A DNA stretch of 44,951 nt from Candidatus Lloydbacteria bacterium RIFCSPHIGHO2_02_FULL_50_18. GTDB lineage: Bacteria > Patescibacteriota > Minisyncoccia > Phycocordibacterales > UBA6899. Where the stretch lies: NCBI GenBank assembly GCA_001821395.1, contig MHLM01000013.1:1-44951 (forward strand), given 5' to 3'. The position numbers and the translations under genes were made by a program. Below are positions 2,953 to 36,500 of the stretch, in pieces. The notes beneath the pieces were generated by a model. The model ran no database searches, had not been told where the DNA came from, and saw only the letters and a list, made by a program, of their open reading frames with translations. The first letter of the stretch is position 1. Each line of letters begins with the position of its first letter.

Positions 2953-3465
2953 TCATGGATTCCAGTATTTTCCACTATGGAGAATTGACGGTCCGCCGAC
3001 GATGCCATCATACTCGATGATGCTGACACCCGCCTCACGGAGCATCATGTGCGCAATGACGATGTCTGCGCTCCATACCGATTCCGGCGGCGTGCGATCA
3101 TGCGCCTGCTTGTGGATGATAAGCGTTCTGATCCCCTCATCGATGATCTCCTGTGCGCACTCGGTGCATGCAGCCCACGGGCAGACCATCGTTAGTCCGT
3201 CGAAGTGGGGAACATTGTGTGCGCGTCGCGCGGTTCCAAGGGTCGAGCGTTCAGCATGGTGTACTAATTTGTATTTTAGTGCGCGGTCGTTCCACCGTTC
3301 GTCCGAGCTGATCACACCATGCGGGAAACGATTGTGATCGGCACCGAGAATGACTACGTTGTCGCCGATACGGGAGACGACAAGCGCACCATTCTGTGTT
3401 GATGGGTCGGGGCTTTTTGTCGCTTCCACGTATGCCTGCCGAAGCAGCTCTTTCCAAATATCCAT
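2953..3465 (-). CDS. dCMP deaminase / cytidine-deoxycytidylate deaminase family (ComEB-like)
   Basis: HAERSTL ... PCPWAACTECAQEI zinc-binding deaminase signature (H-A-E and P-C-x-x-C). GGAGG sits 6 nt upstream of ATG 3465. Confidence 0.8.
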   Translation of the reverse strand: MDIWKELLRQAYVEATKSPDPSTQNGALVVSRIGDNVVILGADHNRFPHGVISSDERWNDRALKYKLVHHAERSTLGTARRAHNVPHFDGLTMVCPWAACTECAQEIIDEGIRTLIIHKQAHDRTPPESVWSADIVIAHMMLREAGVSIIEYDGIVGGPSILHSGKYWNP

Positions 3466-3601: not shown

Positions 3602-5419
<1,818 letters not shown>

Positions 5420-11178: not shown

Positions 11179-12129
11179 ATGAAAAGACCGATCGAGGTGA
11201 TCGGGGTTCCGTTTGCACAGGGCGGTAGTAAGGGTGGGTCTGCAAACGGACCTCGAGGGCTTATCGAAAATGGGCTGCTGGATTTTCTTGAGACAAATGG
11301 GCTTACGTCGACTTACACTGACGTGCAGGGGACAAGCATGTTCCCCGAAATATTCTCAGCCTCTCCGGTGCTCTCCGGACCCGTATGTTCTCATGATGCG
11401 GTTCTTGAGGTGGCGAAACTTGCCGGTGCGCGCGTATTCGCTGCGCATACGCTCGGGCGACTGCCGCTGGTGATCGGGGGTGATCATTCGATCTCGCTTG
11501 GTACGGTTCCGCAATTTCTCGATCCGGTATTCTCGCATGGGAGAAAGGTGGGGCTCATTTGGCTTGATGCGCATTATGATGCGCACACACCAAAGACGTC
11601 GCATTCGCACTTTGCGAACGGTTTCCCACTTGCCTCCGCGCTTGGATACGGAGAACGCACACTCGGTTGCTATGGGGCATTTGGTAGAGCCGCACAGCAT
11701 CGACGTTTACGATTTCGGCCTGAACATGTGTTGCATCTCGGTGCAGGAAAGAGCGATTGTGAACCTGAAGAACTCGCGCTGCTTCAGAAGCTCAATGTTA
11801 AGACCGTAACGATGACCGATGTCAATCGTGGCGGGTACAAGGTGTTGATTGATGCCCTTGATGCGCTTCTTTGTGAAGTTGACGATGTCATCTTCACCTT
11901 CGATCTTGATGCGATGCATAAAAAATTCGTCCCCGGTGTTTCCTTTCAGAGTACGGGTGGTTTGTTTCCGTGGCATGCATTCAAGATCGCGGATAGGATC
12001 GCAACTTCAGGTAAATTGCGCCAGATCGAGATCGTTGAATATAATCCTGATGCGGAGGAATATACGGACCTCGGATATCCCAAAACAGTTGATTTTGTTC
12101 TTTTCTTTCTTGAGCGGCTTCTTCACTGA
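11179..12129 (+). CDS. arginase/agmatinase (ureohydrolase) family enzyme, probably arginase
   Basis: GGDHSIS, DAHYDAHTP and the binuclear-Mn ligand pattern. It sits next to the ornithine aminotransferase and P5C dehydrogenase genes. AAAGGAA lies upstream of ATG 11179. Confidence 0.75.
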   Translation: MKRPIEVIGVPFAQGGSKGGSANGPRGLIENGLLDFLETNGLTSTYTDVQGTSMFPEIFSASPVLSGPVCSHDAVLEVAKLAGARVFAAHTLGRLPLVIGGDHSISLGTVPQFLDPVFSHGRKVGLIWLDAHYDAHTPKTSHSHFANGFPLASALGYGERTLGCYGAFGRAAQHRRLRFRPEHVLHLGAGKSDCEPEELALLQKLNVKTVTMTDVNRGGYKVLIDALDALLCEVDDVIFTFDLDAMHKKFVPGVSFQSTGGLFPWHAFKIADRIATSGKLRQIEIVEYNPDAEEYTDLGYPKTVDFVLFFLERLLH

Positions 12130-22193: not shown

Positions 22194-22222
22194 TTGACTC
22201 TACCGTCGCTTCTCCATATAAT
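22194..22222 (+). promoter_or_regulatory. near-consensus sigma70 promoter (TTGACT-17-TATAAT) upstream of groES
   Basis: TTGACT at 22194-22199, a 17-bp spacer, and TATAAT at 22217-22222. The start codon of groES lies ~100 nt downstream. Confidence 0.6.
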
Positions 22223-22327
22223 GATGGCACTTTCAATGTTGCACTTCCTGCTTTTTGTGCGCGGTGTGACATTGGGCGTGAGTGCGCAGTTTTCATCGGT
22301 ATTAAGAGCAGTAATTTTTAAGCATAT

Positions 22328-22669
22328 ATGGCAAAGGCAACAGCAAAAAAAAGTGCGGCAGCAACAAAACTCGCAATTGCCCCACTCGGTGATCGCGTGC
22401 TTATTCAACCGCTCGATAAGGTGGGTGAGTCAAAAACGGCATCCGGTTTTATTCTTCCCGGCAAAGAGGGCAATGAAAAACACGAACGCGGCCTCGTCGT
22501 TGCGACCGGCCCTGGACGCTATAATGCGGAAGGAAAACGTCTTCAGGTGGAGGTAAAGGCAGGTGACAAGGTGTGGTTCAAGCGCGGCTATGATGCCGAA
22601 GAGGTGAAAGTGGGAGGTGAAGATCACGTGCTGACCTCTGAATCGAATGTATTAGCTATCGAACAATAA
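22328..22669 (+). CDS. groES: co-chaperonin GroES (with ~17-aa Lys/Ala-rich N-terminal extension)
   Basis: GDRVLIQP ... GFILPG ... GDKVWFKRGYD match the GroES consensus. Confidence 0.9.
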   Translation: MAKATAKKSAAATKLAIAPLGDRVLIQPLDKVGESKTASGFILPGKEGNEKHERGLVVATGPGRYNAEGKRLQVEVKAGDKVWFKRGYDAEEVKVGGEDHVLTSESNVLAIEQ

Positions 22670-24372: not shown

Positions 24373-24404
24373 TTACATAGGGTAAACTACCCACGTAAGA
24401 AAAA

Positions 24405-24428
24405 ACGCCTCAATTGCGGCGTTTTTTC
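24405..24428 (+). terminator. terminator after groEL (ACGCC-loop-GGCGT + T6)
   Basis: 5-bp GC stem followed by a T-run. Confidence 0.6.
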
Positions 24429-24443
24429 TTATTGGATGAGGGC

Positions 24444-24472
24444 TTGCCAAGACTTAGAAAATATGATATAGT
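24444..24472 (+). promoter_or_regulatory. sigma70-like promoter TTGCCA-17-TATAGT for the small gene at 24525
   Basis: TTGCCA at 24444-24449 and TATAGT at 24467-24472. Confidence 0.5.
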
Positions 24473-24524
24473 CATTCTGCGTTAAATTAACGTATCGTTC
24501 TTTCAATCCTTAGGAGAAATTTCT

Positions 24525-24725
24525 ATGTGCGCAATCCTTGACCAAGATGACGATGATTTCGACGGCACCGTTCAAACCACTGAGAGTGACGGACGCGTTC
24601 CGGCTCGTATCAGCGCTACCACAGACGACCAGGGCTGGCTGCCCAAAGTCGTGGCAAAGGCCGCTGTTGTCGCAGGTGTCCGCAGTAATTGTGGCGTCGA
24701 CGTGTTGATGAGCTTGGCTCACTGA
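24525..24725 (+). CDS. small acidic hypothetical protein (66 aa)
   Basis: Own promoter, TAGGAGA sequence 7 nt upstream of the ATG, and a strong terminator at 24741-24776. Confidence 0.5.
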   Translation: MCAILDQDDDDFDGTVQTTESDGRVPARISATTDDQGWLPKVVAKAAVVAGVRSNCGVDVLMSLAH

Positions 24726-24740
24726 CGCATAACGTCAAAC

Positions 24741-24776
24741 CGCCCGACCAGGAAACTGGCCGGGCGTAATTTTTTA
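24741..24776 (+). terminator. rho-independent terminator (11-bp GC-rich stem + T-run)
   Basis: CGCCCGACCAG-GAAA-CTGGCCGGGCG followed by TAATTTTTT. Confidence 0.85.
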
Positions 24777-24862
24777 TATTGACTTTTTTTCCGAACGGGA
24801 GAATACTTTTCTCGCACCGCGATTCTGCGGTGATTTGTACCTTTCTATTTAAGGAGTCATAA

Positions 24863-25087
24863 GTGAGCTCACGCAAAAAGACCTTTGCAAGACGTATCGT
24901 CGATGTCGGAGACGAGATCGAGCCGGAAGACATCGTTACTGATCTGCCGTTTTCGACCAAACGTGATTCGTCTGACCACGACGGGCTCTCGATCGAGGAT
25001 CACGTCATGCGGTGCGGGGCGTCTGTTCCGGTGCCTGCAGCAATGCCGCTCTATCGCATCATTCCTTCCTCGCCGATTGGTCGCTGA
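24863..25087 (+). CDS. small hypothetical protein (74 aa, GTG start)
   Basis: AAGGAG sits 6 nt upstream of the GTG. A TTGACT box lies upstream, and a terminator at 25101-25125 follows immediately. Confidence 0.5.
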   Translation: MSSRKKTFARRIVDVGDEIEPEDIVTDLPFSTKRDSSDHDGLSIEDHVMRCGASVPVPAAMPLYRIIPSSPIGR

Positions 25088-25100
25088 TCCATGCACTCGA

Positions 25101-25125
25101 AGCACCCACATCAGGGTGCTTTTTA
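25101..25125 (+). terminator. rho-independent terminator (AGCACCC-ACATCA-GGGTGCT + T5)
   Basis: Perfect 7-bp stem followed by a T-run. Confidence 0.85.
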
Positions 25126-25198
25126 TATGAATTTGACAACATTTATTTTTTAGGTTACTGTCTACATTATTCTTCGTGTTCATTCAATAGGAGTCTTC

Positions 25199-25486
25199 TT
25201 GAGCAACATAACTGATAAATCCGTACGTTCGGACGGTGAGCGTCTATTTTTTATCGATCCGGCACGCAAGGCACTCGGTGAGTATTACGTTGACGAGTGT
25301 GATCGTCAGGTCTTTCGCAATGAGCGCGGCGAGCCGTACTATTTCGGTCTGGTGGACGGCGAGCTTTATCCGATAATCATCTGCCCTCCTTTCGTTCAAG
25401 TGTTTCGTAAGCCGGCATTTCCGGGAGGCGGAGTTGCTATCGGTGAAGGGCTCTACAAAATCGGGTCACATATCGGAGTCGGTTAA
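25199..25486 (+). CDS. small hypothetical protein (95 aa, TTG start, Gly-rich C-terminus)
   Basis: AGGAGTC lies upstream of TTG 25199 (same AGGAGTC-N-TGAGC context as the gene at 24863). A TTGACA box is at 25133. A terminator at 25499-25519 follows. Confidence 0.5.
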   Translation: MSNITDKSVRSDGERLFFIDPARKALGEYYVDECDRQVFRNERGEPYYFGLVDGELYPIIICPPFVQVFRKPAFPGGGVAIGEGLYKIGSHIGVG

Positions 25487-25498
25487 TTGTTTATCTAC

Positions 25499-25519
25499 GC
25501 CCCCCAGTGGGCGTTTTTT
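25499..25519 (+). terminator. rho-independent terminator (CGCCC-loop-GGGCG + T6)
   Basis: Short GC stem followed by TTTTTT. Confidence 0.7.
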
Positions 25520-25580
25520 ATTTCATCTTTATTGACCGATTTGGTACACTAGTTGTATACACGCTGCTAATTTTATCCTT

Positions 25581-32084: not shown

Positions 32085-32189
32085 TTGGATTCCGTTTACG
32101 AAAAAGCCAACCCAATGTCCGGCTCTGCGGACTTGGCTTACTGCGTCAGTACCCCCTCCCGATTTGTCATCAAGTTCTTCCAAACACTG

Positions 32190-32276
32190 CGGAGGAGGAG
32201 AGATTCGAACTCTCGAACGAGTTGCCCCGTTGCCGCCTTTCCAAGGCGGTGCACTAGACCGCTATGCGACTCCTCC
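32190..32276 (-). tRNA. tRNA-Ser (anticodon GGA), long variable arm, CCA not encoded
   Basis: Minus strand reads GGAGGAG-TC-GCA-TAGCGGTCTAG-TGC-A-CCGCC-TTGGAAA-GGCGG-(variable arm CAACGGGGCAACTCGTTC)-GAGAG-TTCGAAT-CTCTC-CTCCTCC-G. It has a 7-bp acceptor stem, a canonical T-loop, and anticodon GGA in a 7-nt loop. Confidence 0.9.
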
Positions 32277-34565: not shown

Positions 34566-36500
34566 ATGGCGGATCACACCAAGAAAATATCGATACATAT
34601 CGGCAATTCGAAACCATCTCCTGCCCCTCTGGGGCATAGTAGCGAGCATTTGCGCGCGCATAGTGAGAAAGCAGTGGTACCATCCGCACACACTAAGTCC
34701 AAGTCTTTGATCGTCACTCATGCGCAAAGCGTATTTCCCGAATCATCAAAGTCGGTAAAAACACTGACTCCCGTCAAACTCGCTATCCCCAAAAAACCAG
34801 TCACGATGGAAGGGATTTCCATGAGCACTATCGCTATCGCCTATTTTTGTATGGAGCTCGGCATCGAGCATTCAATTCCCACTTATGCGGGTGGATTGGG
34901 GATCCTTGCCGGTGATACGCTTCGTTCTGCGGCAGATCTCAATGTGGACATGATCGGCATCTCTCTCTTGTATCGAAAGGGATATTTTCGCCAACGTTTC
35001 GATGACTCAGGTTGGCAGATCGAAGAAGATGAGCAGTGGGATCCGACACAAAAGTTGATCCTCCTTCCCGGCCTCGCTGAGGTCACCATCGAAGGAAGAA
35101 TGGTGTTCATTCGCGCATGGCTCTATAAAATGAGCGGAGTGAATGGTCACGTCAATCCGATCATATTTCTCGATACGGATGTCGACGGGAATAGTGAGGA
35201 TGACCGACAGATCACCGCAAAGCTCTACGCGGGTGATCGCAGAATGAGGCTGATGCAGGAAGCGGTTTTGGGAATCGGCGGTTTTCGCATGCTACAGACA
35301 TTGGGAGCGACCAATATCGAAAAATTCCATATGAATGAAGGACACTCCGCACTGCTGACACTTGAGCTCTATCGGAAATATCATGAATACGATGGTCCGG
35401 TCGAAGAGGTAAAGAGCCGAGCCGTTTTTACGACGCATACACCAATTGCGGCCGGTCACGATGTGTTCACTCGAGACCTTGCGCATGCGGTGCTCGGGAA
35501 AGAGTGTATACCGGAAGAGGTTCAGCATTTGGCATTTGTTGACGGGATGTTGCACATGACACATCTTGGGTTTTCTTTTTCCGGCTATCACAATGGTGTT
35601 GCAAAAAAACATAGTGAAGTTACCCGTGAACTTTTTCCGGGCTATCATATTGAATCGATCACGAACGGTGTCCATGCCGGGGAGTGGGTCAGCGCACCGC
35701 TTGCGGTGCTGTTCGATCGCTATATAGCAGGATGGCGCTTTGATGCACATAATCTTCGATATGCCCTCGTGATCCCGGCCGACGAATTACGGTCTGCGCA
35801 TCAAGCGATGAAGGTGCGTTTGTGTGAGTATGTCCACATTTCGGACCCTGCGACCATCTTTGATCCGCAGGTCTTTACGATCGGTTTTGCGCGAAGGGCA
35901 ACTTCGTACAAGCGCGGTAATATGCTTTTTCATGACGTTGAGCGCCTCAAGCGTATCGCCGAAAAAAGCAACGGTATTCAGATCGTCTATGCGGGAAAGG
36001 CGCACCCCGATGATCGCGATGGTAAGCTGATGATGCAAGAGGTCATTCGGCAGATGCGTACTTTTGCCGGATCAAAAGTGAAATGCATCTATCTTCCCAA
36101 CTACGACATGGAGGTGGCTAAGCTCTTGGTCTCTAGTGTGGACCTGTGGCTCAATACTCCCGTGCGTCCCATGGAAGCGTCGGGAACATCAGGAATGAAG
36201 GCGGCAATGAACGGTGTGCCCCATTTTTCTACGCTCGACGGCTGGTGGCTTGAGGGGCATATCGAGAATGTTACCGGCTGGTCTATTGGTCCTCATCCTG
36301 AAGAGGGGAGGAATCGAGATGTCGATGAAGAGGATGCGGACGATCTGTACAAGAAACTTGAGTATGTGATCATACCGCGATTTGAAGATGATCCGCATGC
36401 ATGGGTGAAGATGATGCGCAGTGCTATTGCAATCAACGGTTCGTTCTTTAACACGCAGAGGATGATGGAGCAGTATGTCCTCGGCGCCTACTTCAAGTAG
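34566..36500 (+). CDS. glgP: alpha-glucan (glycogen/maltodextrin) phosphorylase, GT35 short type
   Basis: YFCMELG...YAGGLGILAGD, EGHSALLTLE, TTHTPIAAGHD and EASGTSGMKAAMNGVPHFSTLDGWWLEG (the PLP-site Lys lies in TSGMKA). The first ~80 residues are Lys/Ser-rich and may not all be translated; alternative starts are at 34806 and 34821. Confidence 0.85.
   Translation: MADHTKKISIHIGNSKPSPAPLGHSSEHLRAHSEKAVVPSAHTKSKSLIVTHAQSVFPESSKSVKTLTPVKLAIPKKPVTMEGISMSTIAIAYFCMELGIEHSIPTYAGGLGILAGDTLRSAADLNVDMIGISLLYRKGYFRQRFDDSGWQIEEDEQWDPTQKLILLPGLAEVTIEGRMVFIRAWLYKMSGVNGHVNPIIFLDTDVDGNSEDDRQITAKLYAGDRRMRLMQEAVLGIGGFRMLQTLGATNIEKFHMNEGHSALLTLELYRKYHEYDGPVEEVKSRAVFTTHTPIAAGHDVFTRDLAHAVLGKECIPEEVQHLAFVDGMLHMTHLGFSFSGYHNGVAKKHSEVTRELFPGYHIESITNGVHAGEWVSAPLAVLFDRYIAGWRFDAHNLRYALVIPADELRSAHQAMKVRLCEYVHISDPATIFDPQVFTIGFARRATSYKRGNMLFHDVERLKRIAEKSNGIQIVYAGKAHPDDRDGKLMMQEVIRQMRTFAGSKVKCIYLPNYDMEVAKLLVSSVDLWLNTPVRPMEASGTSGMKAAMNGVPHFSTLDGWWLEGHIENVTGWSIGPHPEEGRNRDVDEEDADDLYKKLEYVIIPRFEDDPHAWVKMMRSAIAINGSFFNTQRMMEQYVLGAYFK

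Follow-up and report, generated by a model that had tools for sequence, protein, structure and literature searches.

Three clade-restricted small-protein genes with their own predicted promoters and terminators between groEL and LemA in a Candidatus Lloydbacteria genome

One kind of lineage-specific small protein in bacteria is shorter than 100 residues and is encoded by a monocistronic gene that has a promoter and an intrinsic terminator of its own. Stem-loops at the 5' terminus stabilise mRNAs, as in the 5' hairpin of Escherichia coli ompA and the aprE and ermC leaders of Bacillus subtilis, and the stress repressors HrcA and HspR bind directly after the -10 element in other bacteria. The genomes of the Candidate Phyla Radiation (CPR, Patescibacteria) are small yet full of unnamed genes, and to our knowledge almost nothing is known of the build of their transcription units or of their regulation. 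The window analysed here comprises positions 1–44,951 of contig MHLM01000013.1 of Candidatus Lloydbacteria bacterium RIFCSPHIGHO2_02_FULL_50_18, a member of an uncultured CPR/Parcubacteria lineage from aquifer sediment and groundwater. Three small open reading frames (ORF1, ORF2, and ORF3) follow groEL in this window. They resembled other lineage-specific small proteins in size, stand-alone units, strong Shine-Dalgarno (SD) sites, absence from database families, and fast divergence, but differed from them in that three different families, always in the same order, shared a single syntenic slot in a CPR lineage. Positions without a label are those of the window, and labels of the form L0xx denote the loci of relatives that were compared with it.

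The three ORFs are, on balance, probably genuine and independently transcribed small-protein genes of clade-restricted families that share one groESL–LemA–HtpX slot, and their products would bind other proteins. The novel features of the locus are confined to three families that lack names, a conserved promoter–hairpin module in a poorly studied phylum, and a domain for which no fold relative was detected. The initial annotation had placed three ORFs of 66, 74, and 95 residues with ATG, GTG, and TTG starts 3' of groEL (window 24444–25525), and they were found as described. ORF1 (24525–24725) started with ATG and encoded 66 residues with an isoelectric point (pI) of 4.2 and a net charge of -6. 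ORF2 (24863–25087) started with GTG and encoded 74 residues (pI 5.5), and ORF3 (25199–25486) started with TTG and encoded 95 residues. All three, like every feature of their units described below, were on the forward strand, and all three products were acidic (pI 4.2–5.5). Their public records are the hypothetical proteins OGZ05730, OGZ05731, and OGZ05732. ORF2, with its GTG start, was missed in the ENA gene calls of the window contig (L001).

Selection on the ORFs was estimated by the ratio of nonsynonymous to synonymous substitution rates (dN/dS) against L011, whose GroEL was 98% identical to the window GroEL. The dN/dS values were 0.14, 0.25, and 0.23 for ORF1, ORF2, and ORF3, respectively, and 0.016 for groEL, and the amino-acid identities of the three products to those of L011 were 75, 82, and 63%. 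In a six-frame control, the annotated frame had the lowest dN/dS for all three ORFs, with values of 0.31–2.1 in the other five frames, and a 70-residue antisense ORF opposite ORF1 gave 1.11. Mismatches to L011 at codon positions 1/2/3 numbered 13/11/29 in ORF1, 9/10/20 in ORF2, and 21/21/44 in ORF3, and were flat over the three positions in the intergenic segments. The start codons were also interchanged. The TTG start of ORF3 was ATG at the same position in L011, and the GTG start of ORF2, which was the first codon after an in-frame stop, was ATG in L012. The lowest dN/dS in the annotated frame, the excess at third positions, and the interchange of start codons together identify ORF1–3 as genuine protein-coding genes. 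In addition, the codons of the N-terminal MCAILD peptide of ORF1 varied synonymously in every genome (TGC/TGT, GCA/GCT/GCG, ATC/ATT/ATA, CTT/CTC/CTA, and GAC/GAT; four genomes), so that the peptide itself is under selection. The reading frames, and not only the DNA, were thus conserved across relatives under purifying selection. Together with promoters and terminators that were kept unit by unit in the relatives carrying them, this agrees with the description of the three as separate, translated, monocistronic genes.

In word-indexed searches of 5.8 billion proteins, each ORF had a single divergent relative, and these relatives were located on two short contigs, L011 and L012. L011 contained groEL followed by genes of 65, 75, and 95 residues, and L012 contained genes of 64 and 95 residues followed by LemA. 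A peptide-pattern scan for ORF3 over the GTDB species genomes gave no relatives, and in JGI metagenomes no strain other than that of the window was recovered. Eighty loci were obtained when 185,579 species genomes were scanned with LemA as the anchor. The gene order of the window was RNase J (reverse strand), SBP_bac_5 (reverse strand), SecG (reverse strand), groES, groEL, ORF1, ORF2, ORF3, DUF4349, LemA, DUF2207_C, a 90-residue membrane protein, and M48/HtpX. The order SecG (reverse strand), groES, groEL, gap, (DUF4349), LemA, and HtpX further downstream was conserved in Lloydbacteria-like loci, with a gap of 0.8–2.2 kb, and in distant Parcubacteria (L030, L048, and L060) the distance between groEL and LemA was 46 to about 240 bp, too short to hold these small genes. 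ORF3 relatives from an exhaustive search placed L095, L096, L097 (a 352-kb contig), and L098 in the same slot. L094, which at 609 bp was too short to show the neighbours, contained an ORF2-like gene with an ORF3-like gene behind it. Every family member with long enough flanks was located between groEL and DUF4349/LemA, in keeping with the synteny with groEL that had been proposed for checking in related genomes. When hidden Markov models (HMMs) of the three families were compared with every ORF of the window and of 83 loci, matches were found only inside the gap, with no paralogue elsewhere in the 45 kb.

The ORF1 family was found in L011, L019, L020, L021, and L095/96. The order 1–2–3 was kept whenever the families were present, and their presence was mosaic. 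In these loci GroEL was 83–98% identical to that of the window, and ORF3 identity fell to 26–40%. By this comparison, the small proteins are old within the clade but fast-evolving. The three families have so far been found only in Lloydbacteria-like genomes, in one slot and without a database name, and a literature search on Lloydbacteria, on small proteins of Patescibacteria, and on LemA, HtpX, and DUF4349 found nothing relevant. Other conserved families, unrelated in sequence to ORF1–3, also occupied the gap. Proteins of ~67, ~71 ('MLYPQVMSN...'), and ~116–121 residues ('MRESDAQMLITIFGG...') were encoded in L018 (1238–2085), L020 (3985–4832), and L022 (4243–4795), and a 109-residue family with a glycine-rich tail was encoded in L014 (4502–4831) and L015 (4100–4843). 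In L016 (4019–4975) and L017 (4024–4974), the gap contained a gene for a predicted membrane protein of 316–318 residues, upstream of genes for a 65–72-residue 'DDW' protein and a two-module ORF3 homologue.

The ORF1 protein was composed of the N-terminal MCAILD, an acidic stretch, and a conserved C-terminal half (DDxxW-x3-VV-x2-A...G...VD-LM). The six relatives shared the half DD-x-x-W-x3-[VI]-x2-A...G...VD-LM, and four of them began with MCAILD. MCAILD resembles the N-terminus of class-II glutamine amidotransferases, but this resemblance had no profile support and was set aside. The nine members of the ORF2 family shared the motif R-x-[IV]-D-V-G-D-E near the N-terminus and the motif DG-[LP]-S-[IL]-E-[DE]-[HW]-x3-C in the middle of the protein. 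An AlphaFold2 model of ORF2 from a three-sequence alignment had a mean predicted local distance difference test score (pLDDT) of 58.8 and a predicted template modelling score of 0.13, with one helix (residues 44–50) over the second motif. The model is compatible with a largely disordered protein.

The ORF3 protein contained a predicted β-hairpin domain (residues ~10–60; LGEYYVDxxGRxVFxNxxGxPYYFG...P) followed by a glycine-rich tail of low confidence. The AlphaFold2 model had a pLDDT of 79, and ten-residue blocks over residues 11–60 averaged 90–95 in stacked β-hairpins. No fold match to this model was found in the PDB or among viral folds. When 1.84 billion cluster representatives were searched exhaustively by HMM, there were 13 matches, of which 11 were small proteins of 95–163 residues. 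The other two were repeat proteins and were regarded as spurious. The 11 relatives shared LG-x-Y-x-V-D-x-x-G-R-x-V-F-x-N-x-x-G-x-P-Y-Y-x-G...P....R-S and the glycine-rich tail. Some members of the family (133–163 residues; L016/L017 5447–5869, L097 6001–6492, and L098 3669–4121) had an extra N-terminal 'VR..G..YFID..P..GEF' module, which indicates an internal duplication in these homologues. The motif G-[YW]-x-x-D-x-x-G-R-x-[VY]-[FY]-x-N of ORF3 resembled the core of WW domains and, as in the WW and WG hairpin repeats, the model consisted of consecutive β-hairpins, but the signature tryptophans of the WW domain were missing. Assignment to the WW domain was rejected, since the best match to WW_1 had an expectation value (E) of 0.15 in one of 13 members, Tyr and Phe replaced Trp, the spacing was shorter than the 20–22 residues between the two conserved Trp of WW domains, and of the features of that domain only the three-stranded sheet was present. 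In a profile search of the PDB, only sub-threshold matches to WW (tandem WW, E 0.09–1.2) and choline-binding proteins were obtained, all with E ≥ 0.086. Assignment to the WG repeat (PF14903), the label given in UniRef, was also rejected, as PF14903 was not among the families at E ≤ 1 for ORF3 or any of 12 relatives.

None of the three proteins matched Pfam, NCBIfam, PHROGs, or PADLOC, and in none did any 15-residue window reach the hydrophobicity of a membrane helix or signal peptide, as the initial annotation had stated for known motifs and signal peptides. We infer that the products are cytoplasmic, with neither signal peptide nor membrane segment. No tblastn match to ORF2 or ORF3 was found in 50,697 phage records. 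A phage or mobile-element origin of the small genes was discarded, with PHROGs and the phage records lacking matches and the chromosomal synteny fixed. Paralogy between ORF1 and ORF2 was suggested by eye from a shared acidic-W/H-helix theme, but the hhalign probability was 0.4–2.9% and the relation was left unproven.

Each unit contained a σ70-like promoter site, an AGGAG sequence, and an intrinsic terminator, which agrees with the initial annotation. The -10 element of the third promoter was weak. The groEL gene ended in a predicted intrinsic terminator (AAAAAACGCC-loop-GGCGTTTTTT; 24399–24428; -9.7 kcal/mol; T-run from 24426), which would part the small genes from groESL, and a terminator was located at the same place in L011, L019, L021, L095, and L097. 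The first promoter, P1 (TTGCCA-17-TATAGT with a TG-extended -10; 24444–24472), matched the consensus at 10 of 12 positions in a consensus scan. It was kept in L011 (GGGCTTGCCA...TGATA(T/C)A(G/A)T), and similar sites were found in L021, L095, L097, and L098. Beyond the groEL terminator, a P1-type promoter (GGGCTTGC..-TG-extended -10) was kept even where the first downstream ORF differed (L021, about 3795–3845; L097, about 5133–5165; L098, about 3003–3035). The first ORFs behind these sites encoded very acidic peptides of 48, 22, and 36 residues; several such acidic peptides shared a 'DFD' motif, and those of L097 and L098 shared 'DFD..ELPI'. The leader of unit 1 contained a perfect 13-nucleotide palindrome (CGTTAA-A-TTAACG; 24480–24492), which was predicted to fold into a 7-bp stem with a centroid energy of -4.7 kcal/mol (minimum free energy of the whole leader, -6.2 kcal/mol). 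It was kept in L011 with a changed centre base, and L021 had TGCGTT-AATGC-AACGCA. This palindrome could be a weak RNA hairpin or possibly an operator. The SD sequence of ORF1 (AGGAG; 24512–24516) was 8 nucleotides before the ATG, and terminator T1 (CGCCCGACCAG-GAAA-CTGGCCGGGCG; 24741–24775; -19.0 kcal/mol; T-run from 24767) was identical in L011, with a related hairpin at the same place in L012.

Promoter P2 (TTGACT-17-AATACT; 24779–24807) was found by the consensus scan, and TTGAC(A/T)-17-(A/G)ATACT was located in front of the ORF2-family genes of L011, L012, L014, L015, and L019. The first intergenic region, containing T1, P2, and the unit-2 leader, was 88% identical to L011, compared with 70–83% for the ORFs and 64–74% for the other spacers. 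The SD sequence of ORF2 (AAGGAG; 24851–24856) was 6 nucleotides before the GTG. The stem of terminator T2 (GCACCC-ACAUCA-GGGUGC; 25100–25125; -10.6 kcal/mol; T-run from 25120) was remodelled but retained in L011 (GCATCCGC...GCGGGTGC). Promoter P3 (TTGACA-17-TACTGT; 25133–25161) was read by eye, was below the threshold of the scanner, and was the weakest of the three, but TTGACA...AGGTTACTGT was identical in L011 and TAGACA-17-TATGGT was found in L012. The ORF3 leader had no stable structure, and its SD sequence (AGGAG; 25189–25193) was 5 nucleotides before the TTG. Terminator T3 (ACGCCC-CCCAGU-GGGCGU; 25497–25520; -9.7 kcal/mol; T-run from 25515) had the same stem in L011 and a different stem of the same predicted function in L012, L019, L095, and L097.

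When an automatic criterion (a hairpin and T-run 20–60 nucleotides from the stop codon) was applied across the families, 22 of 23 members from 12 loci had their own terminator, and the remaining one, ORF1 of L011, had the window-type hairpin by eye. Because the stems often differed in sequence, the predicted function of the terminators rather than their DNA was conserved. The insulation of the units had been called unusual, which did not hold, since intrinsic terminators were common all along the window; their local density reflected the short genes, and the architecture was normal for this genome. The proposed start context shared by units 2 and 3 was only partly borne out. AGGAGTC was present in both, but the spacers were N4 (GTGAGC) and N3 (TTGAGC) rather than N4/5. 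It also gave no support for a duplication, as the closest relative, L011, had AGGAGTC..GTGGTC and AGGAGCC..ATGAGC at these sites and the context was thus not conserved. With differing leaders and no relation between ORF2 and ORF3 in profile comparison, neither the paralogy of these two proteins nor a duplication of their units was sustained.

The leader of unit 2 contained the 6-bp hairpin that the initial annotation had recorded (CACCGC/GCGGTG; 24815–24832). The stem-loop, CACCGC-GAUUCU-GCGGUG, began 7 nucleotides after the -10 hexamer. In all eight ORF2-family genes with upstream sequence, TTGAC(A/T)-17-(A/G)AT(A/C)(A/C)T was followed 7–8 nucleotides on by a hairpin of 6–9 bp, and this distance from the -10 element would place the hairpin at the 5' end of the mRNA. 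In an alignment of seven hairpin sequences, all 42 base-pair cells were paired, and three of the six pairs changed on both sides (C-G/U-G/U-A, C-G/U-A, and A-U/G-C). The covariation score was reached by none of 500 shuffles, and pairing collapsed to 14–58% when the registers were slid. The loop varied in length from 4 to 7 nucleotides, and G-U intermediates were present in three instances. In L014, L015, and L019, the arms were misaligned by MAFFT, and these loci were kept out of the covariance model of promoter and hairpin and used as held-out tests. In 910 kb, the model matched 11 times, always within the groEL–LemA gap. Among these matches were the three held-out loci (E 2e-4 to 3e-3), as well as L017, a near-copy of the training locus L016. 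Nothing else in the 910 kb was significant, and the search placed no unit-2 palindrome before groES, LemA, or HtpX. A second CACCGC-TT-GCGGTG palindrome was located at 35695–35708, with no recognisable promoter ahead of it.

Variable loops and G-U intermediates favour a hairpin at the RNA level, and the invariant outer CA/UG and inner C-G would still permit recognition of a specific sequence or a role as DNA operator. Like the ompA, aprE, and ermC stabilisers, the stem-loop was located at about +1 of the predicted transcript and had compensatory changes, and an RNase J gene was present in the window. It differed from these stabilisers in that its transcription start was predicted and half of its stem positions were invariant, which hints at specific recognition.

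In the proposed arrangement, each unit would consist of a σ70-type promoter, a short leader, a strong SD sequence, an ORF, and an intrinsic terminator, and would give a short monocistronic mRNA, that of unit 2 beginning with the conserved stem-loop. The stem-loop would most likely either protect the mRNA 5' end from degradation, for which the RNase J gene of the window is relevant, or give a regulator a point of attachment, and the product of unit 2 would then be made abundantly and independently of groESL. The ORF1 and ORF2 proteins would be acidic and largely unstructured, with short conserved motifs (MCAILD and the DDxxW helix in ORF1; RxIDVGDE and DGxSxE[DE][WH]xxxC in ORF2), and probably, although with low confidence, act by binding partner proteins. 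The ORF3 protein would be a small folded β-hairpin domain with a flexible glycine-rich tail. It is speculative, and rather doubtful, that these partners come from the protein-quality-control and envelope module encoded around the genes (GroEL, LemA, and HtpX); the link to these proteins is plausible only from position.

Several points weigh against this interpretation. Selection on the ORFs was only moderate, and amino-acid identity dropped fast, to 63–82% where GroEL was 98% identical. The families came and went between related genomes, as expected for dispensable genes. The low confidence of the ORF2 model was weak evidence for disorder because only three sequences were used. The promoters, the transcription starts, and the monocistronic status of the units were all deduced from the sequence. 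Four of the seven aligned hairpin sequences (L016, both L097 units, and L098) came from a pattern search that demanded complementarity; unit 3 of L097 and L098 were also picked independently as upstream regions of the ORF2 family, and L016 and unit 2 of L097 were supplied by the pattern search only. Finally, vertical inheritance in a clade whose gene order is conserved could by itself explain the fixed position, which was thus no proof of a functional link to groEL, LemA, or HtpX.

At this locus three conserved small proteins are well supported, and one of them contains a domain that was confidently folded in the predicted model and for which no structural relative was found. The compact promoter–hairpin module would be usable in reporter systems. 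For annotation, the locus offers three definable families, confirms the GTG and TTG starts, and contains one ORF that a public gene call had missed. It may also serve as a starting point for studies of gene regulation in Lloydbacteria.

The main rival explanation is that the groEL–LemA interval is a permissive hotspot, where young and dispensable small genes arise, diverge, and vanish with no tie to their neighbours. This is possible, but clearly the less probable of the two. The gap varied in length and in its set of small genes from one Lloydbacteria genome to the next, it was absent from distant Parcubacteria, and the three families were mosaic in their presence and evolved fast, all of which would suit such a hotspot. 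Purifying selection on all three ORFs, the persistence of the order 1–2–3 and of the regulatory modules to about 83–86% GroEL identity, and the retention of MCAILD through synonymous changes do not. These observations show that the genes have a function, not that the function is tied to the neighbours.

The three genes might instead encode stress-induced small proteins, in a heat-shock or envelope-stress regulon with groESL and htpX. The invariant position inside the SecG/GroES/GroEL/.../LemA/HtpX order is consistent with this, as are the palindromes directly after the -10 elements of P1 and P2. An inverted repeat directly 3' of the -10 element in a chaperonin neighbourhood is also the arrangement of the controlling inverted repeat of chaperone expression (CIRCE), the operator of HrcA, and of the HspR-associated inverted repeat (HAIR). 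The unit-2 element was, however, unrelated to these in sequence, its spacing was variable, its arms covaried as in RNA, and none was located before groES, nor before LemA or HtpX in the 910 kb. CIRCE (TTAGCACTC-N9-GAGTGCTAA) gave no match in the window at up to three mismatches, and the promoters were of the housekeeping type. A shared stress regulon is considered unlikely. A bolder variant, in which the gap encodes clade-specific small adaptors that tune GroEL, LemA, and HtpX and the CAYYRC...GYRRUG element is the control site of a CIRCE-independent stress circuit, would be less likely still.

Instead of forming an RNA hairpin, the unit-2 palindrome could be the DNA operator of a dimeric repressor. 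It overlapped the predicted transcription start, its outer CA...TG and inner C...G were invariant, and five instances were near-perfect 16-bp palindromes (CACYACATGTGTRGTG). The spacing of the half-sites, however, varied (4, 5, 6, or 7 nucleotides), and in three instances the arms covaried via G-U (T-G in the DNA), which keeps the pairing in RNA but not the symmetry in DNA. An operator is on these grounds an improbable alternative to the hairpin at the mRNA 5' end.

A cryptic toxin–antitoxin or toxin/regulator set, which the initial annotation had offered as an option, would suit small adjacent genes with an acidic product beside a more basic one, but it is highly improbable, since each gene had its own conserved promoter and terminator, with terminators between the genes, unlike co-transcribed type II pairs, and the genes occurred singly or in different combinations in relatives at a fixed, vertically inherited chromosomal location, with no toxin or defence family among the database searches described above and no phage match for ORF2 or ORF3. 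Integron cassettes were also considered and rejected, as every unit had its own promoter and the 3' hairpins were short GC stems with T-runs and not attC sites. That the ORFs are spurious and that non-coding RNAs or regulatory DNA account for the conserved features, as the short length, the two non-ATG starts, the missed call of ORF2, and the better conservation of the first intergenic region might suggest, is refuted as far as sequence evidence reaches by the third-position periodicity, the lowest dN/dS in the annotated frames, the interconversion of start codons at the same site, the protein-level homologues at 26–40% identity, and the confident predicted fold of ORF3.

The neighbouring genes provided further observations. 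The RNase J gene (Lactamase_B, RNase_J_b_CASP, and RNase_J_C domains) extended up to about 19850 on the reverse strand, about 5 kb upstream of the small genes. In the region 22194–22330, the groES gene had a near-consensus promoter (TTGACT-17-TATAAT) about 100 nucleotides upstream of its ATG, with no CIRCE and no obvious AGGAG before the start. The ENA calls and another annotation differed in the start codon of the DUF4349 gene (321 and 329 residues) and in the lengths of SecG and DUF1189. In L097, a Barstar-family gene (11736–12017) was located downstream of the DUF1189 gene. The sole Rfam or ARAGORN match in the 45-kb window was a tRNA-Ser(GGA) gene at 32189–32276 on the reverse strand.

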